A stretch of DNA of 64,000 bases from Candidatus Levyibacteriota bacterium (GTDB lineage: Bacteria > Patescibacteriota > Microgenomatia > Levybacterales > UBA12049): contig CAVRKE010000002.1 in assembly GCA_963722305.1 (NCBI GenBank), positions 123,878 through 187,877 of the forward strand. The letters are read 5' to 3'. Of this stretch, positions 1 to 60,665 are shown piece by piece. The position numbers were made by a program, and so were the translations under genes. Positions within the stretch are counted from its first letter, which is position 1. The number at the start of each line of letters is the position of its first letter. A model generated the notes under the pieces. That model did not search any database. It had not been told where the DNA came from and worked only from the letters and a program-made list of their open reading frames with translations.

Positions 1-1171
1 TTGAAATATTTGAGTCTCTAATTGAAGTCCAAGCTCTGGAAAAACCCAGCTCGATGGCTGTTTGATGGGATTTTCCTTGCCTTAATTCTTCTTTCATTCT
101 TTCGAAGATTAAAATGTTGGCGTCAACTGCCATGCCGATGGAAAGAATAAATCCGGCAATTCCGGAAAGGGTCAGCGTTATTCCGTAGGGCGTAATCGAA
201 CTTAATTTGAAAATGCTTAAAACAAACAAAGTGTACAAAGTTAAAGCCAAACTGGCAATTAATCCCAATTTCTTGTAGAGAGACGTCATAAAAACAACGA
301 TTATAACAAAACCGAGTATGCCTGCAAAAAGGCTTTTTGCAAGCGAGGAACTGCCTAAAGTTGGCTCAATAACACTACTCGATAATATGCTTAAAGGGAC
401 CGGTAAGGCACCGGCATTTAGTTCCGTACTTAATTGAGTGGCTTGATCCAGAGTAAAATTTCCTTCAATCACAGCATTACCACCAACTATTGCTTGATTT
501 ACTCTGGGTGTACTGATAATTTGGTTGTCTAAAGCAATTGCCAAGATTTTTCCAACTAGCCTTTGTGTAATATCGGCAAATTTCTTAGAACCCGCAGAAT
601 TAAAAACAAGTTGCACTTCCGGCTTGCCGGTATTTTGACTAAAAGCAACACTTGTTTGCTGTAAATCCGAACCGGTTAAATTCGTTTTTCGATAATCTGC
701 CGGGTTAAATGTTGCCGAATTAGTACCAACTTGTTCCCAAAAAGTTAACTGGGCAGTTGTCCCGATTAAGTTTCTGATTTGGTTGACATCCGTGACCCCG
801 GGAATCTCAACGATGATTCTGTAATCGTTATTGTTTGTCACTGATGTTTGGACCAGCGGTTCGGAAACACCGAATAAATTTACCCTGTTTTCAATTACGG
901 TTTGTGCGGAACTTAACGCAGCTGTTCTTTGAGCTTGAGCAATACTGGACATATTTGCCTTAAGTATTAAACTCGTTCCGCCCTTTAAATCCAATCCTTC
1001 TCTAAAAGTTAACGTTTGATTTATTTTTAAAGCGGCAAAAATAGAATTCGGATCAAAATTATAAGTTTTGTCGGCAAAATGAATATTGGAAATCTTTGGC
1101 AAGTTAATAAAAACCGCCACAACAGTTAAACCAATAATTAACCACAAAAGATACCGTGGACTTTTTCTCAT
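1..1171 (-). CDS. secD: Protein translocase subunit SecD (3' end runs off the window edge)
   Basis: Translation of the minus strand from the ATG at 1171 gives MRKSPRYLLWLIIG...VSEPLVQ...AGILGF...AVDANILIFERMKEE. These are SecD hallmarks. Not in the ORF track because it is partial. Confidence 0.85.
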   Translation of the reverse strand, partial: MRKSPRYLLWLIIGLTVVAVFINLPKISNIHFADKTYNFDPNSIFAALKINQTLTFREGLDLKGGTSLILKANMSSIAQAQRTAALSSAQTVIENRVNLFGVSEPLVQTSVTNNNDYRIIVEIPGVTDVNQIRNLIGTTAQLTFWEQVGTNSATFNPADYRKTNLTGSDLQQTSVAFSQNTGKPEVQLVFNSAGSKKFADITQRLVGKILAIALDNQIISTPRVNQAIVGGNAVIEGNFTLDQATQLSTELNAGALPVPLSILSSSVIEPTLGSSSLAKSLFAGILGFVIIVVFMTSLYKKLGLIASLALTLYTLFVLSIFKLSSITPYGITLTLSGIAGFILSIGMAVDANILIFERMKEELRQGKSHQTAIELGFSRAWTSIRDSNIS

Positions 1172-1189
1172 AGATTCGATTTACTCACT

Positions 1190-1218
1190 ATGACACTGAG
1201 AAAAGTCGAACGTGTCAT
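1190..1218 (-). promoter_or_regulatory. Conserved intercistronic hairpin E1 (stem ATGACAC/GTGTCAT, loop TGAGAAAAGTCGAAC) between the regulator stop codon and the secD ATG
   Basis: Perfect 7-bp inverted repeat. The TGA stop of the upstream ORF lies inside the stem. The whole 1172-1218 spacer is about 85% identical to the ftsE-ftsX spacer. Confidence 0.6.
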
Positions 1219-1790
1219 GAAAGCATTGCTTCCTCGTCGCCCAAAAGCATTACCCTGGACCCGGAAAGGATTGAAATAATAAATGGATCTCGTTTTTTCT
1301 TTCTGAAACCAAATTCTTCTTCCGTCATCACCGTATAGTTAATTTCCGTACTTAGTCTTTTTTCTTCCTCTCTTACTAAAAGAGCCAGTTCCGGTAAAAC
1401 TACACTTCCAACCACCAAAAGGTCTACCTCATCGGGTTGCTCTTTCATTTTTCGAAGAAAACGGCCCGAAAACATCGCGTATTTTATTCTGCCAAGCTTG
1501 ACTTTATTTTTGAGAATATCCGCACCGAGTCCAATATTCTTTGAGCCAATCCTTAAAAGATCAAAGTAATACGGATAAGATTTCGAGAGGGAATAATAGA
1601 CCCTGTTTGCCCTTGGTTCCCTGATTAAAATTCCTTTTTTCTCTAAAAACGCCAGCTCTCTTCTAACCGCATTGATTTCATCTGCTGTCCTTCTGACTAG
1701 CTCCCTGACATGAAACATTTCATTTGGAGAACCCAGGAAAACGTTCAATAATTTTACTCTGGATTTAGATGTAATTAAATCTGAAAACAT
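1215..1790 (-). CDS. Putative winged-helix transcriptional regulator (unknown family)
   Basis: 191-aa ORF with an N-terminal wHTH-like segment (VRELVRRTADEINAVRRELAFLEKKGIL). No specific family recognised. Confidence 0.4.
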   Translation of the reverse strand: MFSDLITSKSRVKLLNVFLGSPNEMFHVRELVRRTADEINAVRRELAFLEKKGILIREPRANRVYYSLSKSYPYYFDLLRIGSKNIGLGADILKNKVKLGRIKYAMFSGRFLRKMKEQPDEVDLLVVGSVVLPELALLVREEEKRLSTEINYTVMTEEEFGFRKKKRDPFIISILSGSRVMLLGDEEAMLS

Positions 1791-18924: not shown

Positions 18925-19791
18925 CTATTTAAGATATCTTAGAACCGCTAAAAAGCTTGAGACAATACCCAAAAATACCGCAAATAAAACTTCCAGGCCA
19001 AGCAATAACAGAAGCGAAAAGTAAGAAACCGGCAAAACCGGAATTCCTTTTAAGAATGACTCCAAAAACGGCGAGGCATACAATAGTCCGGCAGTGGCAA
19101 TTAGCCAACCGATGACCGAACCAACAACCCCATAAAAGACTCCCTCATATATAAACGGCCAGCGGATATACCAATTTGTTGCTCCAATCAGTTTCATGAT
19201 TTCGATATCTTCTTTTTTCTGGGAAATTTTTACTCCGATTATTGTTACCATAATAAAGATGGAAACCAAAGACAAAAGGACAATTAAAACTATGCCAATT
19301 TTTCTTATCGCACCTGTCCATGCGCTTAGGGTGGAAACAACGTCTTTTTGGTAAACAACATCCGACACTAGCGGTGACTTTGTGAGCATATTGGAGATAT
19401 TTCCTAAATCTTCTATCTTAATCGTGGAGATTTCAAATGACGAAGGTAAAACGTCGGCGGTAACCAAATCCAAAAGCAGCGGGTCATTCTTATTTTGTTC
19501 TCTGTAAATTTTGAGGGCATCCTCTTTTGAAACAAATTTAATTGAGGCAACCTTACCGGTTGCTTTTAACTGATTTCCTAAAGCATCAATGTCCGCCTGT
19601 TTTGCCTCGTTTTTGAAAAAGGCTGTCACCTGAGGTTTTGACTCAAAATAATTGATTATTGTTGACGATCCGGCCAAAAGGAAGACAAAAAAGGATACTG
19701 CCAAAAAAGTTAAAGTCATGATTAGAATTGCCGCCAACGCCTGATACGGCGACCTTCGAATATTTTTCCAGGCAGTTTTAGTAATGTTCAT
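18925..19791 (-). CDS. ftsX: Cell division protein FtsX
   Basis: Four-TM permease-like topology with a large periplasmic loop. Confidence 0.85.
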   Translation of the reverse strand: MNITKTAWKNIRRSPYQALAAILIMTLTFLAVSFFVFLLAGSSTIINYFESKPQVTAFFKNEAKQADIDALGNQLKATGKVASIKFVSKEDALKIYREQNKNDPLLLDLVTADVLPSSFEISTIKIEDLGNISNMLTKSPLVSDVVYQKDVVSTLSAWTGAIRKIGIVLIVLLSLVSIFIMVTIIGVKISQKKEDIEIMKLIGATNWYIRWPFIYEGVFYGVVGSVIGWLIATAGLLYASPFLESFLKGIPVLPVSYFSLLLLLGLEVLFAVFLGIVSSFLAVLRYLK

Positions 19792-19808
19792 AGATTCGAT
19801 TCCTCACT

Positions 19809-19837
19809 ATGACCTTGAGCAATGTCGAACAGGTCAT
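19809..19837 (-). promoter_or_regulatory. Conserved intercistronic hairpin E2 (stem ATGACCT/AGGTCAT, loop TGAGCAATGTCGAAC) between ftsE and ftsX
   Basis: Same loop as E1, with two compensatory base-pair changes in the stem. The ftsE TGA lies in the stem. The spacer 19792-19837 is near-identical to 1172-1218. Confidence 0.6.
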
Positions 19838-20550
19838 TTCTTTTCCCCTCCCCTGTCCTCCGAAGCCGCCAATTTGGCGTGCGAAGGAGGATTTTCATCT
19901 TTGATAATCTTCCCCTTTTCAATATGAACTACTCTTTTCCCCAAGCTTTTCACAATATCTGTATTGTGGGTAGCCATCACCACGGTTGTTCCCTTTTTGT
20001 TGATATCCGACAGAAGTTTTACTATTTCCCATGAAGTTGCCGCATCTAAGTTACCCGTTGGCTCATCTGCCAAAAGTATTTCGGGGGACAAAACCAAAGC
20101 TCTGGCTATGGCCGCTCTTTGCAGCTCTCCCCCCGAAAGCTGCACGGGAAATTTATCTTTGTGTTCCGAAAGCCCAACTTGAGCTAAAATTTCTTCGACT
20201 GTCTTCGTGGCCTGGTCCAGTTTCACTCCGGCCACTTCTAAAGGCAACACAACATTCTCAAAAACAGTTCTGTCTAAAAGAAGCTTTAAATCCTGGAAGA
20301 CAAAGCCGACCTTTTTCCTTAAGCTGGAAATTTTATTTTTAGGAAGCTTAACCACATCCCAATCATTAACAATTACGTTTCCTTCCGTCGGCAAAATATC
20401 CCTTATCAAAAGCCTAAAAATTGTGGTTTTTCCGGCACCCGTCGAACCAACTAAAAAAACAAACTCTCCTTTTCCAATATCGAGAGAAACTTCAGAGAGG
20501 CCAAATGTACCTGTCCCGAATTTCTTGGAAACTTTATCAAGTTTTATCAT
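19834..20550 (-). CDS. ftsE: Cell division ATP-binding protein FtsE
   Basis: ABC ATPase with Walker A GSTGAGKTT, LSGGELQR and Walker B. Confidence 0.9.
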   Translation of the reverse strand: MIKLDKVSKKFGTGTFGLSEVSLDIGKGEFVFLVGSTGAGKTTIFRLLIRDILPTEGNVIVNDWDVVKLPKNKISSLRKKVGFVFQDLKLLLDRTVFENVVLPLEVAGVKLDQATKTVEEILAQVGLSEHKDKFPVQLSGGELQRAAIARALVLSPEILLADEPTGNLDAATSWEIVKLLSDINKKGTTVVMATHNTDIVKSLGKRVVHIEKGKIIKDENPPSHAKLAASEDRGGEKK

Positions 20551-37152: not shown

Positions 37153-37782
37153 TTAAATTGAAGTTAAACCCAATTGCTTCTTCATAATTGGTTTTAACTT
37201 GTTTATTGCCTTATATCTATGATTATATAATTTTTGCTCGTTTTTTGAAAGCTCACTCTCATGGTAAAACTTATTTATCTTTGGAATAAAGAAAAAAGAC
37301 CGGTAAGGATAACCTTTTAAGATTTTCAATAATGGCTTTTCGGCAATTACACCGTCAACTTTCCCCTCAACGCTCCAAATCCTACCGTCTGGCAGGGCAA
37401 AAGAAACAATTGTCCTAAACACAGCTTTTCGATTATCTTTTGGCAAAGATTTTGAGATTTTTAACATATGATTGACTAACTCTTCATCTGTTGCTTCGTA
37501 ACCGAGCCAGCGTCTCGACCTTATCCCGGGTTGATTATTTAAGGCCGAAATTTCTATTCCGCCGTCGTCGGCAATTGTCGGTAAATCCGCTAATTTAGAA
37601 AAAAATATTGCCTTTTTTTGCGAATTTTCCCGGTAGGTTTTTCCGTCTTCTTCAATATCTTCCGTAATTCCTAAGTCATGAAGAGAAACTATTTCCAATG
37701 GCAAATCCTTTAAAAATTCCTTAAACTCTCCGACCTTTCCCTCATTTTTAGTAGCAATTAATAATTTATATCGAGGTTTCAT
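37153..37782 (-). CDS. rdgB: Non-canonical purine NTP pyrophosphatase (Ham1/RdgB)
   Basis: LLIATKNEGKVGEF and the conserved ITPase fold. Confidence 0.8.
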   Translation of the reverse strand: MKPRYKLLIATKNEGKVGEFKEFLKDLPLEIVSLHDLGITEDIEEDGKTYRENSQKKAIFFSKLADLPTIADDGGIEISALNNQPGIRSRRWLGYEATDEELVNHMLKISKSLPKDNRKAVFRTIVSFALPDGRIWSVEGKVDGVIAEKPLLKILKGYPYRSFFFIPKINKFYHESELSKNEQKLYNHRYKAINKLKPIMKKQLGLTSI

Positions 37783-39283
37783 TAAATCTTTTTTTCACAA
37801 ACTCCTTATCCAACGATAAAATTAACCAAGCCGCTTTTGGTCCGTGATCTTTACCGATTAAAGAAAGATAAATTGCCGCAAAAGACTGTTTTCCATTCAA
37901 TTTCAATTCTTTTCCGATGTCATAAATTCTGGTCTGAAATTCTTCACCGTTCCATTGCTTGTCTAATTCTTCGCTCAATTGTTTTAAGAATACTTTTTGC
38001 TCTTTAGATAAATTCTGAACTTGAGCCGGTAACTGTTTCTGAATTATGAATTTGTCTTCTTCCGGAGCAAATTGGTCCACCCAAACTCTGGCATATTTTG
38101 CCCATTCTTCAAGTCCTTCTTTTTTAATTTCCTCTTCCATGTTGGGCATCTGTATCCACTGGGATAAAACGGAAAATCTGATTTGTGGAGGTTTTTTAAT
38201 TTCGCTAACTTTGGACAGTTCAAACGCTCTAACTAAATCCTCATCGCCTTTATTGAAAAATGCATCGGCCGCTTTTTGGTAATCATCAAAAAGGCTTGGG
38301 ATCGCAGTTCTTTCTTGCGGATCAAAGTTGCTTTGTGATTTGAAACCGTTTCTGGCAAAAAGAAAACGGGCAACCTCGGGAGGCAATATTTTTACCAAAT
38401 CGTGGGCTTTTAGCCCCAAACCTTTTGATGAAGACATTTTTTTGCCGCCGATTAAAATAAATTCATAAGGTAACCTAAAGGGTTTTGGATAATCAAATAC
38501 TTCTTCACAAAGAGCCATGGCAATATCGTAAGAACCGCCGGCCGAAGCATGGTCTTTTCCCGCCCCTTCGATTGTGATGCCGATTACTTTCCAGTGCGCC
38601 GCCCAATCCACTTTCCAGGGAAGTTTGCCGGTTCCGCCAAAAGGAGTTATTCGGCCTTCATAGCCACAACCCTTAGCCCATTTCACGAGATTTGGTTCAC
38701 ATTTATAAGAAACCTCTTTACCGTCCCAGGCAAAAACTTTGGTTGTTCCAAGCTTGCCGCATTTTTCACAAATAATCTGCAAGGGTAACCAACCGGATGC
38801 TTTTTTTTGACTACCACTAATTGTTTGATAAATATCCTGAATTCTTTCGGCATTATCTAAAGCTTCTTTAATTACTCCATCAAATTTTCCTTGATGATAA
38901 AGTTCCCATGAAGAAAGGATTTTTGCTTCCACCCCTAAACTTCTTATTGAGTTAACAAAATCACCGGCAAAATAATCTGCCAAGTTTGAATATTCGGGAA
39001 CAGGAGATGGAACTTGCTTAAGAGACATACCCATATATTGCCTGAAATCTTCTTTTAATTCCGGAGAGAGTTCGTCCATAGCATCAAAATCATTAATCAC
39101 GAAAGTGAATTTCGGATTTTGACCCGCATCTCGAAGTGCTCTGAAGATCATGCTGTGGATTACCGGCCCCATTAATGAACCGACATGAGAAAAACCGGAG
39201 GGGGTTTTCATGTCGTCAACCCAGTAGGGTTTATGTTTGCCAGAAGCAATGATGTCGCTTGCAACTTTATCCGCCCAAAACAT
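37766..39283 (-). CDS. lysK: Lysyl-tRNA synthetase, class I (archaeal type)
   Basis: HVGS (HIGH-type) and KMSSSKG (KMSKS-type) motifs. Length about 505 aa. Confidence 0.8.
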   Translation of the reverse strand: MFWADKVASDIIASGKHKPYWVDDMKTPSGFSHVGSLMGPVIHSMIFRALRDAGQNPKFTFVINDFDAMDELSPELKEDFRQYMGMSLKQVPSPVPEYSNLADYFAGDFVNSIRSLGVEAKILSSWELYHQGKFDGVIKEALDNAERIQDIYQTISGSQKKASGWLPLQIICEKCGKLGTTKVFAWDGKEVSYKCEPNLVKWAKGCGYEGRITPFGGTGKLPWKVDWAAHWKVIGITIEGAGKDHASAGGSYDIAMALCEEVFDYPKPFRLPYEFILIGGKKMSSSKGLGLKAHDLVKILPPEVARFLFARNGFKSQSNFDPQERTAIPSLFDDYQKAADAFFNKGDEDLVRAFELSKVSEIKKPPQIRFSVLSQWIQMPNMEEEIKKEGLEEWAKYARVWVDQFAPEEDKFIIQKQLPAQVQNLSKEQKVFLKQLSEELDKQWNGEEFQTRIYDIGKELKLNGKQSFAAIYLSLIGKDHGPKAAWLILSLDKEFVKKRFNETSI

Positions 39284-39329: not shown

Positions 39330-39581
39330 TTAACTTTGAACTCTTTCTCCCAGTTCGTTTATCCAGGGCACGAGTCGACGTGCTCTATCCGAAGTTCCTG
39401 GGTTAACTTCGTCCGCTTGAACAACTCTCGGTCTAACTATAATTTGTTCTGTTACTGAAGTTCTAAAAGAAATACCTGCTAGGTCTACTTTTCGCGATGA
39501 AGAAAAGCTATGTCTTCCACCATCCGGTTGACTTCCTTCCTGAGCTACTTCTTCTGGTGTCCTACCTGCTAATCTATCCAT
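39330..39581 (-). CDS. Hypothetical 83-aa protein (no recognised family)
   Basis: AGGAGGTGA SD 6 nt upstream of the ATG, preceded by hairpin E3. Confidence 0.45.
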   Translation of the reverse strand: MDRLAGRTPEEVAQEGSQPDGGRHSFSSSRKVDLAGISFRTSVTEQIIVRPRVVQADEVNPGTSDRARRLVPWINELGERVQS

Positions 39582-39600
39582 AATATTTCACCTCCTGACT

Positions 39601-39628
39601 TTAGTGGTGAGCATTGTCGAACCACTAA
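39601..39628 (-). promoter_or_regulatory. Hairpin E3 (stem TTAGTGG/CCACTAA, loop TGAGCATTGTCGAA)
   Basis: The loop matches the E1/E2 loops with a different perfect stem. On the sense strand it is followed by AGGAGGTGA and the ATG of the 83-aa ORF. Confidence 0.55.
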
Positions 39629-39760
39629 AAAACCCTTCCGTTTAGGGATATCTTTTCCGGTAATTGTTAATTACAAAAAGATTCCCTCAGAAGGGCTGCT
39701 TTTTTGCTAACTTTTCTAAATTTAATTTTTCAAAACTTGACATAATTATAAACACATTTA

Positions 39761-47242: not shown

Positions 47243-48694
47243 ATGAAGATTAATCTCCACAAGCTTAACAAACTTAAATTTGGCATCAGATTCAAGTACT
47301 CGAAACGTCTAATCCGCATTTCCCGGGTAGTCTTCTGGTTTTCTGTTGGTGCCATACTGTCATTTTTCTTTATCATCAGCTTTAGCTTTTTTGCATATCA
47401 AAAAATTTATGCAAACAAAGTTTATCAAGGAGTTTATGTTGATAATGTAAATTTTGGCGGCGAAACCAAACAGGCGGTAAGTGATTTCTTTACTGCAAAA
47501 AACTCCCAAATAAAAAACGCCCAGATTACTTTCGCAAGTGATTACGGGATTGCCACGGTTTCCGCCGGTCAAATCAGTCTTGGTTATGACCAAAATCTTT
47601 CTTCCGACCAGGCTTACAGCATCGGCAGATCGGGAAATCTGATTTCAGACCTAAGCATCATTCTTCAAGCTTATATCAATGGCATTTATCTTCCGGCAGC
47701 TTACTCCTATGATCAAAACACACTTTTAACTTTAATCCAGCCTGTTTCGCAAAAGATAGAAGAAAAACCTATTGATGCCCTGTTTAAATTCGAAAACAAC
47801 CGGGTAACGACTTTTCGGCCCTCTGAGAACGGGCAGACACTAGATCTTGACTTACTGGATAAAAAAATTGTTTCCGACATCCCCGACATTGTTTCCGCAG
47901 GAAGAAATTTAGCAGTCTCAATCACTATTCCTATAAAAATAATCCCACCCGACATTACTACCGAAAAGGTCAACAACCTGGGCATTAAAGAGTTAATCGG
48001 TGTTGGCCATTCTCTTTTTTATGACTCTATCCAAAGCAGAATCTTTAACATCAACCTTGCCGCTAACAGACTTAATGGCATACTGGTTGCCCCGGGTGAA
48101 ACTTTTTCCTTCGACAAAGCCCTTGGTGACGTCTCTGCCTTTACCGGTTATCAACAGGCTTATGTTATCCAGAACGGGAAAACCGTCTTGGGAGACGGCG
48201 GTGGAGTCTGCCAAGTTTCAACCACATTTTTTAGAGCTTTGCTTAACGCCGGCTTACCAATTGTGGAAAGACATGCCCATGCCTACAGAGTCGGCTACTA
48301 CGAGGAAGATTCTCCTCCGGGTTTGGATGCAACCATTTATGTACCCACTGTTGACCTGAAATTCTTAAACGATACCGGACATTATATTCTAATTCAAAGC
48401 AAAATCGACCTTGACAATTTGGCTTTAACCTTTGAGTTGTATGGAACAAGTGACGGCAGGCGGGTCATGATGACCACGCCGGTTGTCAGCAATCAAACGC
48501 CGCCGCCGCCGACTCTTTATCAGGATGATCCTACACTTCCAAAAGGACAATTAAAACAAACGGATTTTGCGGCTTGGGGAGCAGATGTCTACTTCACCAG
48601 AACCGTCACCAGAAACGGTAAAACAATAATTTTTGACAAATTTGTTTCCGACTACCAACCCTGGCAAGCGGTTTATTTAAGGGGGACGCAATAA
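47243..48694 (+). CDS. VanW-family protein
   Basis: VanW core with GGGVCQVSTTFF. Confidence 0.75.
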   Translation: MKINLHKLNKLKFGIRFKYSKRLIRISRVVFWFSVGAILSFFFIISFSFFAYQKIYANKVYQGVYVDNVNFGGETKQAVSDFFTAKNSQIKNAQITFASDYGIATVSAGQISLGYDQNLSSDQAYSIGRSGNLISDLSIILQAYINGIYLPAAYSYDQNTLLTLIQPVSQKIEEKPIDALFKFENNRVTTFRPSENGQTLDLDLLDKKIVSDIPDIVSAGRNLAVSITIPIKIIPPDITTEKVNNLGIKELIGVGHSLFYDSIQSRIFNINLAANRLNGILVAPGETFSFDKALGDVSAFTGYQQAYVIQNGKTVLGDGGGVCQVSTTFFRALLNAGLPIVERHAHAYRVGYYEEDSPPGLDATIYVPTVDLKFLNDTGHYILIQSKIDLDNLALTFELYGTSDGRRVMMTTPVVSNQTPPPPTLYQDDPTLPKGQLKQTDFAAWGADVYFTRTVTRNGKTIIFDKFVSDYQPWQAVYLRGTQ

Positions 48695-49218
48695 TGCGAC
48701 ACTTTGAAAAAGTTAGTCCCCGCGTGGGAAATAGAATTGTTAATATTCAAGAAGCGGCAAAAATCAGCCGCAGACTAAAAAAGGAAGGAAAAACTGTGGT
48801 TCTTACCGGAGGTTGTTTCGATATTCTTCACTTAGGCCACCTCAAATTCTTAGAGGCGGCAAAAAAAGGCGGTGACATCTTGTTTGTCTTTGTGGAAAGC
48901 GATGAAAACGTCCGCAGAGTTAAAGGCGAGAACCGGCCAATCAATACCCAGGATGAAAGAATCGGTTTACTGGCAGCAATCCGTTTCGTCGACTATGTAA
49001 TAAAATTGCCTCTTATGCACGACAACAACGACTACGACAAATTGACAAAAATGGTACAACCGTCAATTATTGCCGTCACCAAGGGAAGCGAGGTTATAAA
49101 ACATGCCCGAAGACAGGCAGAAAAAATCGGTTGCGAAGTTATCGAAGTAGTTGGCAGAATTCCCGACCGTTCTACCTCAAAAATTGCCGGGATTATCTCC
49201 GCAGAAAATAAATTATGA
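48694..49218 (+). CDS. Cytidylyltransferase-family protein (RfaE domain II / HldE C-terminus-like heptose-1-P adenylyltransferase)
   Basis: VVLTGGCFDILHLGHLKFL motif. Confidence 0.6.
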   Translation: MRHFEKVSPRVGNRIVNIQEAAKISRRLKKEGKTVVLTGGCFDILHLGHLKFLEAAKKGGDILFVFVESDENVRRVKGENRPINTQDERIGLLAAIRFVDYVIKLPLMHDNNDYDKLTKMVQPSIIAVTKGSEVIKHARRQAEKIGCEVIEVVGRIPDRSTSKIAGIISAENKL

Positions 49219-49247
49219 CCCAAGGAAATAGCGAATGAATTGAACCT

Positions 49248-49691
49248 ATGAAGATTACCTATTTTTTATTAGTAGCATTTATCATCCTCGTTGTTGTCCT
49301 TTTGAAAATCGATTATTTCAGTCCCCAACCACCAACCGCCGAAATCAATGGGCATGTATTTTCTCTATATCTTGCCAAAACGGAGTCTGAACAGGAAGTG
49401 GGACTAGCGAAATTTGATAGAATCGCCAATCATCAAGGTATGCTTTTCATTTTCCAAAAGCCCGATTACTATTCTTTTTGGATGAAAAACATGAAATTTC
49501 CAATTGATATTATTTTTATTAATAACGATAGAGTAGTCGACATTTTTCAGAATGTTCCCGTACAGAAAGACACTAATAATCTTCCGACCTACACCACCGG
49601 CGAAAAAGCCGATAAGGTACTGGAAATAAATGCCGGCTTGGCAAAGCAATACAGCATCAAGATCGGTACGGAAGTGGGGATTAATTTGTGA
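49248..49691 (+). CDS. DUF192 domain protein
   Basis: GMLFIF...FWMKNMKFPIDIIFI. Confidence 0.65.
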   Translation: MKITYFLLVAFIILVVVLLKIDYFSPQPPTAEINGHVFSLYLAKTESEQEVGLAKFDRIANHQGMLFIFQKPDYYSFWMKNMKFPIDIIFINNDRVVDIFQNVPVQKDTNNLPTYTTGEKADKVLEINAGLAKQYSIKIGTEVGINL

Positions 49692-58937: not shown

Positions 58938-59210
58938 TTACCTTACTACTTTCTTCAAGGTTTTCCCCGGTGTAAATCCCGGTGCTTTGCGGGCCGCAAT
59001 GGTAATTTTTTCTCCGGTCTTTGGATTTCTTCCCGGCCTGGCGGCTCTTTTTCTAATGGAGAATGTGCCAAATCCGGTAATCACTACCTTCTCGCCTCTT
59101 TTTAAGGAGTCTCTGATGCCGTTTAAGAATGCCCCAACGGCATCTCTGGCTGCCTTATTGGTCATATTCCCTTTTTTGGCAACTAACTCTATTAAATCTT
59201 TTTTTGTCAA
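58938..59210 (-). CDS. hup: DNA-binding protein HU
   Basis: HU fold (GFGTFSIRKRAARPGRNPKTGE). TTG start with a GAGGTGA SD. Confidence 0.9.
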   Translation of the reverse strand: MTKKDLIELVAKKGNMTNKAARDAVGAFLNGIRDSLKRGEKVVITGFGTFSIRKRAARPGRNPKTGEKITIAARKAPGFTPGKTLKKVVR

Positions 59211-59417
59211 CTCAATTCACCTCGCTTTCCTAACAAATAGTCGAACTAATAACTAGTGGCTAATTGCTAATGGCTGATTATTAATTAGCTTAACAATACA
59301 ATGTAAATGAGAAGTTGTCAAGGGGCGAACAATTACTATTTCGCCCTGCGATCCTGAGCGAAATGAAGTCCTCCAAGGACTGAGTGGAGTCGAACGGGTC
59401 AAGCACCTTTTAATTAT

Positions 59418-60665
59418 TTACGAGGAAAATTCGGTGGCGGTGGCGCGGAATTCCCGAATGGCGGTCACTTTTATTTCTCCGGCTACTGCCTGAGATTTAC
59501 TGACTTCATCCCTGATTTTATTGGCGACCACTGTCGTTTGCGCATCGTCCAATTGTCCCGGATTGATGATGACCCGCAATTCTCTCCCGGCTTCAAACGC
59601 ATAAGCGTCCTCAACGCCTTCATATTTTTTGGCAATTTCTTCCATTTGCGCCAAGCGCTTACCGTAGTTTTCCACATCTTCATATCGAGCACCCGGTCTG
59701 GCTCCGGAAATCTGGTCGGCAATATGCACAATCACCGACTCAACCGAGGAAAACGGCTTATCTTCATGGTGTTCGGCCACACAATTAACAATTAAGTCCG
59801 GGATATTATTTTTCTTTAAGAAATCTACTCCCAAAGTGACATGGCTGCCCTCGCCTTCCAGCACTTTTCCGATATCGTGGAATAAACACCCCAGGCGGAC
59901 AATATTGACGTTGGCCCCGATTTCTTCGGCAATGTGGATTCCGATTTTGACGTCTTCCAAAGTATGAATGATTAAATTCTGACCGTAAGAAGTCCTGAAT
60001 TTAAATCTGCCTAAGACTTGCAGAATTTCGCGGGACAAATTAAACACTCCGGCTTCATGTGCCATTCTTTCGCCTTCTTCAAACATTATCCTATCGACTT
60101 CTTTTTTTGTTTCCTCAACAATTTCCTCTATGCGGAATGGCTGAATCCTGGTATCCCTGATTAATTTTTCCAAAGACCTTCTGGCCACTTCCCGTCTGAC
60201 CTGGTCAAAACTGGATAGCCTGATAACACCCTCTTCATCCAAATCAACGTCTACTCCGGTGGCCTGTTCAAAAGCCCGGATGTTTCTGCCTTCTTTGCCG
60301 ATGATGCGGCCTTTAATTTCTTCGTCGGGGATTTTCACTACCGAAACCGTGTATTCGGCAATAAACTTGAGGGCGCCAAAGCGCATAGCGTCCACCAGAA
60401 TTTCCTGGGCCTTTTTATCGGCGGTGGACTTGGCTTCGTCTTCCCTGTCCCGGATAATTTTAGCGGCTGTCTTAGCTTCACTTAATTCCAGTTGTTCTAA
60501 GAGCTCTTTTTTGGCTGCCTCGGCACTTAAACCGGAGGTTTTTTCCAGTTTTTCCTGATATTTATCTTTAAGCTCGGTAAGCTTCGCTCTTTCCTGTTCA
60601 AGTTTTTCTTCCCTTTCCAGAAGTTTTTTTTCTAATTGAATTAAATCCTGATTATCTTGTGCCAT
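59418..60665 (-). CDS. rny: Ribonuclease Y (lacks the N-terminal TM anchor)
   Basis: KH and HD domains. 415 aa. Begins with a coiled coil. Confidence 0.85.
   Translation of the reverse strand: MAQDNQDLIQLEKKLLEREEKLEQERAKLTELKDKYQEKLEKTSGLSAEAAKKELLEQLELSEAKTAAKIIRDREDEAKSTADKKAQEILVDAMRFGALKFIAEYTVSVVKIPDEEIKGRIIGKEGRNIRAFEQATGVDVDLDEEGVIRLSSFDQVRREVARRSLEKLIRDTRIQPFRIEEIVEETKKEVDRIMFEEGERMAHEAGVFNLSREILQVLGRFKFRTSYGQNLIIHTLEDVKIGIHIAEEIGANVNIVRLGCLFHDIGKVLEGEGSHVTLGVDFLKKNNIPDLIVNCVAEHHEDKPFSSVESVIVHIADQISGARPGARYEDVENYGKRLAQMEEIAKKYEGVEDAYAFEAGRELRVIINPGQLDDAQTTVVANKIRDEVSKSQAVAGEIKVTAIREFRATATEFSS

Follow-up and report, generated by a model that had tools for sequence, protein, structure and literature searches.

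Among described systems, mycobacterial interspersed repetitive units (MIRUs) are among those that most closely resemble the element that is the subject of this work. As Supply et al. (1997) are summarised in PMC12548453, MIRUs insert at start codons and carry an internal open reading frame (ORF) coupled at -4 nt. Overlaps of 4 nt couple this mini-ORF to the genes on either side, so that insertion barely disturbs expression. REPs, and the inverted dimers (REPINs) that are common among them, are imperfect palindromes of 20-40 nt that are dispersed, extragenic and co-transcribed, and are associated with RAYT transposases (Y1 HUH enzymes). Small non-autonomous insertions of the MITE type (Correia/CREE, RUP, and the Coxiella MITEs of PMC5896051) have a target-site duplication, inverted repeats and hairpin transcripts. 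They are often co-transcribed with neighbouring genes and influence their expression. Finally, in the bypassed sequences of T4 gene 60 and of Magnusiomyces mitochondria (byp), a mobile-looking insertion of 27-55 nt, with identical end codons and a hairpin at its 5' boundary, is tolerated as the ribosome gets across. Such insertions interrupt coding sequences, and crossing them requires a nascent-peptide signal and, right after the take-off codon, a stop or unassigned codon.

Our analysis concerns a 64-kb stretch of DNA from Levybacteria, a Microgenomates (CPR) lineage (the window), in which we found two intact copies of a repeated element and three partial or decayed copies. The genes at both intact copies are on the minus strand; hence, the RNA-sense element is the reverse complement. 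The first intact copy, c1 (1168..1218, minus strand), is a full element with ATGA at both ends, and scores 71 bits (E=1e-14) with a covariance model built from relatives. It lies between an ORF for a wHTH/ArsR-like regulator (1215..1790) and secD (start codon 1171-1169). Hairpin H1 of this copy (1190..1218, minus strand) reads ATGACAC-GTTCGACTTTTCTCA-GTGTCAT in the RNA sense, with arms at 1218-1212 and 1196-1190 around a 15-nt loop, F (1211-1197). Hairpin H2 (1168..1193, minus strand) pairs a 5' arm, TCATAG (1193-1188), whose TCAT is common to H1, with a 3' arm, CTATGA (1173-1168), that includes the secD start codon. The H2 loop, R (TGAGTAAATCGAAT, 1187-1174), is complementary to the conserved blocks of F. 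The second copy, c2 (19788..19837, minus strand; 69.2 bits, E=2.7e-14), is also complete. It lies between ftsE (stop 19834-19836) and ftsX (start 19791-19789), with H1 as ATGACCT-GTTCGACATTGCTCA-AGGTCAT (19837-19809; loop F at 19830-19816) and H2 as TCATAG/CTATGA (19812-19788). A sequence-only reading of this DNA had described H1 at both junctions: a 7-bp stem with a 15-nt loop, the upstream TGA inside the 5' arm (1215-1217 and 19834-19836), and two full compensatory base-pair differences between the stems. We recovered each of these features. The two spacers are alike, as had also been said, at 81% (35 of 43 positions in a hand alignment of the 43- and 42-nt spacers) rather than the 85% given.

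The exact loop motif, TGAG-N4-GTCGAAC, occurs four times in the window, against roughly 0.03 expected (an estimate from its 11 fixed bases). Copy c3 (39599..39630, minus strand) is a single hairpin with the same loop (TTCGACAATGCTCA) on an unrelated stem (TTTAGTGG/CCACTAAA). Behind it come a canonical AGGAGGTGA ribosome-binding site and an ORF of 83 codons that starts with ATG. This copy has neither the R half nor the ATGA flanks, and scores 21 bits (E=0.007). We considered TTCGAC as the -35 box of a promoter, and rejected this; c3 has no matching -10 element, and the stems covary. A decayed, internally deleted copy (49215..49251, plus strand; 19.6 bits, E=0.016) reads ATGACCC-AAGGAA-ATAG-CGAATGAATTGAA-CCT-ATGA. 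A cytidylyltransferase-like ORF (48694..49218) ends at its first TGA, and a DUF192 gene (49248..49691), identified with Pfam, begins at its second ATG. Fragment c4 (59381..59402, minus strand), directly downstream of the RNase Y gene, consists of a 5' arm and loop F (TTGACCC-G-TTCGACTCCACTCA). It lacks a matching 3' arm and is probably what is left of a decayed copy.

The hairpin originally noticed is half of a larger unit; the conserved part runs on for 20 nt, up to the downstream start codon. The full unit is about 47 bp (43 nt plus the duplicated ATGA) and has the consensus ATGA-YCC-[loop TTCGRC-N3-4-CTCA]-GGR-TCAT-AG-[TGAG-N3-5-TCGAA]-(T)CT-ATGA. Within each element, F and R are inverted copies of the motif TTCGAC-N3-4-CTCA. 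The second helix, TCATAG/CTATGA, includes the downstream start codon. Note that the central TCAT can pair with either ATGA, so H1 and H2 are mutually exclusive, and both covary.

Evidence for structure comes from comparison of copies. The H1 stem is 99.3% paired in more than 100 metagenomic copies, with double changes at three pairs, and none of 500 shuffles reached the observed level of covariation. H2 also has compensated variants (TCATAT/ATATGA, TCATAC/GTATGA and TCATGC/GTATGA). RNAalifold predicts the H1 helix too, with a consensus energy of -9.1 kcal/mol. Comparison of the sequences thus supports structural constraint on the H1 hairpin. Selection on the structure had been argued earlier from c1 and c2. 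Constraint stands, given the stem covariation. The compensatory differences between c1 and c2 would also fit descent from differing master copies and so, alone, are no proof of RNA function. The evidence is comparative, not energetic, and predicted energies are not decisive. Individual copies had unremarkable z-scores (-0.98 and +0.33). Predicted ensemble probabilities were 0.56 for H1, 0.20 for H2 and, on average, 0.19 for pairing of F with R. This last pairing remains an alternative fold and is the predicted fold of c1, in place of H1. Geometry speaks against an H-type pseudoknot of loop F with the downstream UCGAAU, which we rejected (linkers of 0-2 nt would have to cross helices of 7 bp and 9-14 bp). 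Two further exclusions made from the sequence were sound. H1 is not a terminator, since the outer part of the stem is rich in A and T and the sequence that follows is AGUGAG..., not a run of U residues; the downstream gene starts 17-20 nt after H1, in the same transcript. Nor is it a tRNA, and ARAGORN found no tRNA or tmRNA genes in the window. Rfam gave no matches across the whole window at the gathering threshold and, around c1 and c3 with a permissive cut-off (E<=10), only noise with E above 0.03. A mimic of the T-loop or tRNA elbow (GUUCGA), or complementarity to the 3' end of 16S rRNA, may be no more than a resemblance.

At the regulator/secD, ftsE/ftsX and secD/secF junctions, stop and start simply overlap by 4 nt (ATGA) in close relatives. 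At the first of these, four relatives (L324-L331) read ...gctttc-ATGA-gaaaaa, where the window has ATGA, 43 nt, and ATGA again. At secD/secF, TAAT-ATGA-ATATAAT in L327 contrasts with a filled site in L324. Of 55 related loci, 29 have the plain overlap at ftsE/ftsX; the filled form of this junction is seen in the window and in L001, L021, L022 and L027. Judged from these sequences, the element is an insertion between two copies of ATGA where relatives have one: 43 nt, with a 4-bp ATGA duplication. In c1, the first ATGA (1215..1218, minus strand) is the original overlap and the left copy of the duplication, and its TGA is the regulator stop codon. The stop codon sits in the 5' arm of H1 because the 4-bp target was duplicated, and the duplication preserves both the upstream stop and the downstream start. 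Alternatively to a true duplication, the 4-bp repeat could comprise a target tetranucleotide and an element-borne end, as in IS200/IS605 insertions. A fixed left ATGA is compatible with such PATE-like elements, but the two hairpin loops are opposite in orientation and the left hairpin takes in the flanking ATGA. Subfamilies are common to different loci, and nested insertions occur inside loops. Free loop positions differ among copies within one contig; hence, the insertions are old. Conservation of the blocks may then reflect a host-level function rather than mobility.

The search for further copies proposed in the earlier reading was productive. The covariance model found 13 significant copies in 1.28 Mb of sequence from relatives. 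Metagenomes were scanned with a pattern in which only some parts of the element were fixed; this yielded at least 120 loci (114 unique stretches), of which 106 copies were analysed. Since the pattern fixed TTCGRC, CTCA and TCATAGTGAG, conservation of these blocks is not independent evidence. Features unconstrained by the scan are informative: the first tetranucleotide is ATGA in 95 of the 106 copies and GTGA in nine, and the arms are perfectly complementary in 100. The two ATG triplets are 44-48 nt apart in 97 copies, and an ORF of at least 60 codons (or reaching the contig end) follows the element in 94. The orientation of the element is always that of the downstream gene. Ten diverse downstream proteins were compared with Pfam (L24, FtsH, PBP1, RadA, a UvrD-like helicase, a response regulator and others), and in several the domain starts at residues 1-7. 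We conclude that many housekeeping genes, unrelated to one another, truly start at the second ATG.

The first ATGA is the ancestral start position, either as a 4-nt stop/start overlap or as a leaderless +1 (TATAAT-N6-ATG). An upstream ORF ends at the first TGA in 48 of the 106 copies. In 15 of the remaining 58, a -10-like hexamer lies upstream, with exactly 6 nt between its end and the first ATGA. The same spacing precedes ordinary ATG starts in the lineage (94 of 829 genes), where only 20% of genes have a Shine-Dalgarno-like motif and 18% have ATGA overlaps. The element had been proposed as a specifically intercistronic signal. This does not hold, since leaderless-type transcription units carry about half of the copies at their 5' ends.

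Our preferred interpretation, to which we assign a probability of about 0.6, is that a REP-like hairpin module acts as MIRUs do in mycobacteria: it would insert at start codons and, by a putative RNA mechanism, pass ribosomes on through a mini-ORF. The mobility module of a REP/REPIN-like element would be the hairpin with its loop motif. Insertions at ATGA start codons would be tolerated, and so survive, because both the upstream stop and the downstream start are regenerated. Ribosomes would still reach the first AUG, by termination-reinitiation or by leaderless 70S initiation. They would then translate a mini-ORF of 7-19 codons across the element, melting H2 which, if left unmelted, would sequester the real start codon. 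Termination would follow 0-20 nt from the second AUG, with reinitiation there, matching the proposal for MIRUs. The first AUG is followed by ACC or AUC, both of them sense codons. From the first ATG, the mini-ORF ends within TCATAGTGA, 17-20 nt upstream of the second ATG, in 59 of 97 copies, and at a TGA overlapping the second ATG in 33. In c1 it has 16 codons with an ATGA overlap at both ends (regulator stop and secD start); in c2 it runs 13 nt past the ftsX start. Selection on the mini-ORF frame was not demonstrable, and the excess of stop/start overlaps comes mostly from the modal loop lengths (LF=15, LR=16). Three functions had been offered for the hairpin. Translational coupling is the best fit; an RNase site and a loop-binding regulator found no support.

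How does the element compare with the described systems? Like MIRUs, it is a short (about 40-100 bp), mobile-looking repeat at start codons and intercistronic junctions, co-oriented with genes, in a host lineage rich in leaderless and coupled genes. The internal mini-ORF with 4-nt overlaps may be a further likeness, and c1 has exactly this at both ends. Unlike MIRUs, the element is made up of two hairpins whose stems covary, and the downstream -4 overlap is found in only about a third of copies. Apart from one 38-nt tandem of the loop motif (in L031), each copy stands alone, and tandem VNTR arrays were not found. The host, moreover, belongs to the CPR and not to the actinobacteria. To our knowledge, the MIRU consensus has no recognisable resemblance to that of the element.

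At 29 nt, H1 is a short, extragenic, many-copy imperfect palindrome, in the manner of REPs. Loops F and R are inverted, as in REPINs. There is no GTAG or CGTC terminal tag, and the 13-15-nt loop is conserved while the stem is variable, which is the reverse of typical REPs. Stem variation by complementary changes is shared with REPs (PMC3733652). Unlike REPs, the element has a 4-bp flanking duplication and start-codon specificity. Furthermore, REP families are usually confined to related species, whereas this loop is common to several phyla. A Pfam scan of ten ORFs adjoining copies found no RAYT gene and no transposase. As with MITEs, 4 bp (ATGA) are present on both sides and empty sites exist at three junctions. 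Here, though, the inverted 13-nt blocks are internal rather than terminal, with CCC and CT outside them and ATGA at the ends. Insertion, moreover, targets a start codon and follows one strict orientation. Most MITEs are several-fold larger than this 43-nt element.

The loop is also found outside Levybacteria. At least 120 viral contigs, ranging in GC content from 0.32 to 0.72, share one 17-mer, which is also present in Proteobacterial plasmids (Sphingobium, Moraxella, Comamonas and Sinorhizobium). In both settings the 13-nt loop is found on other stems. Two matches inspected as sequence, from Sphingobium and Moraxella, are intergenic inverted doublets. This broad family has no orientation bias with respect to genes (27 same-sense and 29 antisense), and a strand test on stem mismatches found no bias (11 G.T and 16 A.C). 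Hence, the loop common to Proteobacterial repeats and viral contigs points to a widespread hairpin repeat family. A literature search with the loop sequence, and its peptide translations, returned only unrelated primer matches, and the loop is absent from the REP surveys searched for it. Tentatively, the TTCGAC-AAG-CTCA loop, on any stem, might be the recognition or cleavage site of a putative single-strand-specific mobilisation system, spread from CPR bacteria to Proteobacteria and viral contigs. A Levybacteria derivative would integrate at the ATGA starts of leaderless or coupled genes, guided by pairing of TCAT with the target. It would there have been co-opted as a Shine-Dalgarno-less initiation cassette, with an AUGA/UCAU/AUGA switch that ties expression to arrival of ribosomes at the ancestral start. 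We regard this fuller scheme as possible, though speculative.

Alternatively, the element could be a cis-regulatory leader of the host. A protein or sRNA acting in trans would read the loop (TTCGAC...CTCA) or the AUGA/UCAU/AUGA switch, the regulon would be co-regulated, and copies would have spread as useful. The fixed orientation, and fixed register relative to the start codon, are in keeping with this. Orthologous copies at the secD junction keep the blocks while N4 drifts (CTTG, TTCG, GTTG and TTTT), and both H1 and H2 are kept by compensatory changes at resident loci. The loop hairpin is also joined to an ordinary Shine-Dalgarno sequence in c3 and L010. However, the downstream genes have no shared functional theme (L24, FtsH, PBP, RadA, helicase, ADH, response regulator, SecD, FtsX and Adk), and at one and the same junction the element is present in some close relatives and absent from others. 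In old copies the loop is lost while the stem stays (a tetraloop in L324 and a degenerate loop in L031), which is the opposite of what a loop-binding factor predicts. Note also that, in Proteobacteria, the same loop lacks orientation bias. We consider such a leader unlikely.

Rather unlikely, in our view, is a role at the DNA level only, such as classical REPs or BIMEs may have. Here, a hairpin or cruciform would be a site for gyrase, nucleoid proteins or a domesticated transposase, and the start-codon position would simply be the only tolerated place in a compact genome. The element does have pseudo-two-fold symmetry, such that the antisense strand also scores 26.6 bits. Consistent with this idea, the broad family has bias neither in orientation nor in the strand of stem mismatches, and forms the inverted intergenic doublets described above. 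Conversely, every Levybacteria doublet examined is co-oriented with its gene, and pairs of the G.U type are tolerated on the sense strand (GTGA...TCAT in nine of 106 copies, and TCATGC/GTATGA). In rplX and adk, which are essential and highly expressed, the element is in the sole translation-initiation region. Hence, the RNA must at least be compatible with initiation.

A third possibility, close to the processing site suggested in the sequence-only reading, is that H1 stabilises or marks mRNA. At a 5' end, or between cistrons, it would block 5'-end-dependent or 3'-exonucleolytic decay, or would direct cleavage. In E. coli, REPs between cistrons stabilise the upstream mRNA. H1 would begin at about +1 in the promoter-proximal class, and RNase Y is encoded within the window. 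We judge this improbable; it leaves the ATGA duplication, the conserved H2 at the start codon, and the R block unexplained, and the 7-bp stem is weak. Programmed bypass, with take-off at the first AUG and landing on the identical AUGA 44-48 nt downstream, is suggested by the identical flanking tetranucleotides, the hairpin that begins at the take-off codon, the gap of about 47 nt and the mobile-looking insertion, but is very improbable because a nascent-peptide signal is impossible at an initiation codon, no stop codon directly follows the first AUG, and the element can be crossed by ordinary termination and reinitiation, which is the norm in the lineage.

If insertion at start codons with relay through a mini-ORF is correct, the element would be a second independent case, after mycobacterial MIRUs, of a mobile mini-element living on start codons. 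The host would be an uncultivated CPR lineage in which initiation is mostly leaderless or coupled. The hairpin repeat family to which the loop points, not mentioned in the REP surveys searched for it, would be widespread. The element would also account for odd 'spacers' of 40-50 nt that are otherwise annotated as intergenic regulators. Because a mini-ORF precedes the true start, gene callers may well misplace starts at such loci. The copies would be a natural, many-fold replicated experiment in which ribosomes cross about 45 nt, from an ancestral start to a displaced one without a Shine-Dalgarno sequence, by reinitiation, scanning or RNA unfolding.

Comparison with related genomes identifies the feature as an insertion element of 47 bp that occupies ATGA start codons. 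FtsX neighbourhoods of 80 such genomes place the organism in Candidatus Levybacteria/Levyibacteriota (CPR, Microgenomates). At the ftsE/ftsX junction, 29 of 55 loci have a plain 4-nt ATGA overlap. The window is filled, as are four comparison loci (L001, L021, L022 and L027). The regulator/secD junction reads ...atgctttc-ATGA-gaaaaa... in four relatives with 86-91% protein identity, and ...atgctttc-ATGA-(43 nt)-ATGA-gaaaaa... in the window. Similarly, secD/secF is empty in L327 (TAAT-ATGA-ATATAAT) and filled in L324 (TAAT-ATGG-CCCGGAGGCCATAGTGAGGAATTCGAATCT-ATGA-ATATAAT). Judged from these alignments, a site that is filled in some genomes and empty in others, with a direct repeat of 4 bp, is the signature of insertion with target duplication. 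Alternatively, an element ending in the same four bases would have inserted beside a fixed tetranucleotide.

The insertion element has two intact copies in the window: c1 (1168-1218, regulator/secD) and c2 (19788-19837, ftsE/ftsX). Since the minus strand carries all the genes involved, we describe it in the RNA sense, as the reverse complement. Hairpins are present at both sites as the sequence-only reading described: ATGACAC-GTTCGACTTTTCTCA-GTGTCAT in c1 and ATGACCT-GTTCGACATTGCTCA-AGGTCAT in c2. Both have a 7-bp stem and 15-nt loop, the stems differ by two compensated pairs, and the upstream TGA stop is within the 5' arm (wHTH/ArsR-like regulator ORF, 1215..1790, for c1; ftsE, 19834..20550, for c2; both minus strand). 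The spacers are identical at 35 of 43 positions by hand alignment, rather than at the claimed 85% or so. ARAGORN found no match, in keeping with the statement that this is not a tRNA, and an Rfam search gave no match for the hairpin. The view that the structure is constrained, with a plausible link to translational coupling, stands; insertion on ATGA start codons had been overlooked.

Past the hairpin (H1, with loop F), c1 and c2 run on identically for 20 bases: AG-TGAG-N3-4-TCGAA-TCT-ATGA. At the last ATG, secD (c1) or ftsX (c2) starts. The conserved blocks of loop F recur, as their reverse complement, in a second loop, R (TGAG...TCGAA). The helix that closes R, H2 (TCATAG/CTATGA), contains the start codon. 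The bases TCAT are common to both helices. Hence, the layout is ATGA...TCAT...ATGA, and the central TCAT is able to pair with either ATGA. Predicted ensembles are mixed (H1 0.56, H2 0.20, F:R pairing 0.19), with the F:R fold favoured for c1.

Metagenomes were scanned with the pattern TTCGRC-N3-4-CTCA-NNN-TCATAGTGAG, which left the 5' arm and all bases 3' of AGTGAG free. At least 120 stretches were recovered, and family statistics cover the 106 fully parsable of 114 unique copies. Among the copies listed, the first tetranucleotide is ATGA in 95/106 and GTGA in 9/106, ATG-to-ATG distance is 44-48 nt in 97/106, and 94/106 are followed by an ORF that has 60 or more codons or reaches the contig end. 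Complementarity at the three variable stem positions is perfect in 100 of the 106 listed (CCC/GGG 72, TCC/GGA 22, CAC/GTG 4, TCT/AGA 1, TTC/GAA 1). An alignment of 58 sequences shows H1 to be 99.3% paired, with double changes at three pairs, and its covariation score was matched by none of 500 shuffles. RNAalifold predicts the same helix. A covariance model, the kind of check proposed earlier, found copies in the window and in relatives. Copies identified by the model, not the pattern, include compensated H2 variants (TCATAT/ATATGA, TCATAC/GTATGA, TCATGC/GTATGA) and additional H1 variants, such as ATGATGC/GCATCAT. Scores are 71 bits for c1, 69 bits for c2 and 21 bits for c3, a single hairpin at 39599-39630.

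Unrelated housekeeping genes begin at the second ATG, which is their real start codon. Pfam scans covered ten of them: ribosomal protein L24, FtsH, class A PBP, RadA, UvrD-type helicase-nuclease, 5'-3' exonuclease, response regulator, glycosyltransferase, alcohol dehydrogenase and SpoIID. In several, the domain begins at residues 1-7. Further copies are upstream of secD, secF, ftsX, ftsE and adk (the latter by N-terminal sequence). The TGA of the first ATGA ends an upstream ORF in 48 of the 106 copies listed. Of the other 58, 15 have a -10-like hexamer whose end precedes the ATGA by exactly 6 nt; in 6 more the gap is 7-8 nt. Ordinary genes were represented by 829 ATG-start ORFs from the window and loci L002-L059. 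Here, the hexamer also peaks exactly 6 nt before the ATG (94/829, read as leaderless genes; background about 10 at each position). An SD-like motif lies within 20 nt in only 20%, and 18% have ATGA stop/start overlaps. Together, these figures indicate that Levybacteria initiate mostly by leaderless or coupled routes. Translation signals of the lineage are unusual; A follows ATG at 65% of these starts. By position, the element's first ATGA falls exactly where a leaderless or coupled start codon is expected, and the element is interposed between ancestral start position and ORF.

The downstream gene is probably still expressed, via ribosome passage over the element. Ribosomes would reach the first AUG through reinitiation at the AUGA overlap or leaderless initiation. 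Movement through UCAUAG would then melt H2 and free the start codon. The mini-ORF from the first AUG stops at UAG-UGA of UCAUAGUGA in 59/97 copies, which leaves 17-20 nt to the second AUG; in 33/97 its stop is the UGA that overlaps this AUG. The latter include c1, where 16 codons have an ATGA overlap at each end. In only 5/97 is the mini-ORF fused with the main ORF or overshooting its start; that of c2 runs past the ftsX start. Note that modal loop lengths largely account for these stop positions, and frame selection is not demonstrable from the distribution. The proposed melting corresponds to 'RNA unfolding' and 'ribosome delivery by a short ORF', both mechanisms in a review (PMC12548453). 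The same review describes mycobacterial interspersed repetitive units (MIRUs) as mobile repeats whose insertions fall on start codons and whose internal ORF is coupled at -4 nt.

A motif search gives four exact occurrences of the loop motif in the window. The hairpin c3 (minus strand) shares it on an unrelated stem, TTTAGTGG/CCACTAAA. Downstream is an 83-codon ORF of odd composition, upstream of the class I lysyl-tRNA synthetase gene (37766..39283) and preceded by two terminator-like hairpins with T runs (39630-39700). The ORF has no Pfam match, the region (39330-39760, minus) has no Rfam match, and this may be a non-coding leader instead of a gene. Between the RNase Y (59418..60665) and HU (58938..59210) genes, the interval 59250-59400 (minus) has a stemless loop-motif fragment, a GGGCGAA...TTCGCCC hairpin and a TTGACA box, with a second GTTCGAC at 59242. 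It may be decayed element debris or the HU promoter region. Elsewhere, L031:13140-13225 has a 38-nt tandem pair of loop-motif units and L057:4880-4925 a single unit. These have only a 3-bp TCC/GGA or CCC/GGG stem and precede a conserved 'catatagat(c/t)tatata' region, an arrangement unlike that of the start-codon element.

The 17-mer CCTTCGACAAGCTCAGG is in at least 120 viral contigs of GC content 0.32 to 0.72. Extra copies on these have an identical 13-nt loop and very different stems (GCAT/ATGC, GTGC/GCAC, GTGG/CCAC, CGCGC/GCGCG and others). A 35-nt consensus matches plasmids or chromids of Sphingobium, Moraxella osloensis, Comamonas, Sinorhizobium and Methylobacter, with as many as 21 places in one Sphingobium megaplasmid record; nearly all of the places lack an annotated feature. 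In the matches inspected from cultured Proteobacteria, Sphingobium and Moraxella (plasmids AP027342.1, 50560-50660, and NZ_CP024183.1), the identical hairpin CCC/GCCC-TTCGACAAGCTCA-GGG(C) forms unannotated intergenic inverted doublets. In the broad loop-motif set, neither the orientation relative to genes nor the strand of stem mismatches shows a bias. Translations of the repeat (PFDKLR, LRQAQGER, VVSLSNHE) probably recur in spurious small ORFs of many phyla. A second, smaller palindromic module, about 27 nt long and carrying the same motif (GACATTCGGCTGAGCTCAGTCGAAGCC), is nested within F or R loops of some Levybacteria copies (GACATTCGGC-TGAGCTCA-GTCGAAGCC; L022:4816-4899, L031:4782-4897, L299 and L298). 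It enters just after TTCG(A), which suggests that insertion or cleavage is targeted to the loop itself. Given its wide spread and varied stems, the hairpin appears to be a REP/REPIN-like module that is very widely distributed. Described REP families carry GTAG/CGTC tags, which this hairpin lacks, and the loop motif was not found in a limited set of REP surveys. The element is nearest to MIRUs by behaviour and to REP/REPIN elements by architecture, but belongs to neither family by sequence or defining tags.

At resident loci, copies differ in what they keep. Orthologous regulator/secD copies (window, L214, L215, L243, L231 and L257) retain all blocks, while the four central loop bases vary freely and compensated stems differ (CAC/GTG, CCC/GGG, TCC/GGA). 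Older copies retain helices and have lost the loop sequence. L031 has a degenerate loop and compensated H2. The secD/secF copy, L324:11908-11952, has a CGGA tetraloop in place of the 13-15-nt loop, and its stem is now ATGGCC/GGCCAT via a compensated A-T to G-C change. Going by these bases, the hairpin, not the loop sequence, is kept at this locus. Wholly decayed copies are found at L026, L320, L244 and window 49215-49251 (plus strand; internally deleted, detected by the covariance model and flanked by a cytidylyltransferase-like gene and a DUF192 gene). Because copies were ascertained by pattern and model, what follows stays a suggestion: that the element has two layers, with the loop motif serving spread, and the helices and ATGA serving compatibility with expression.
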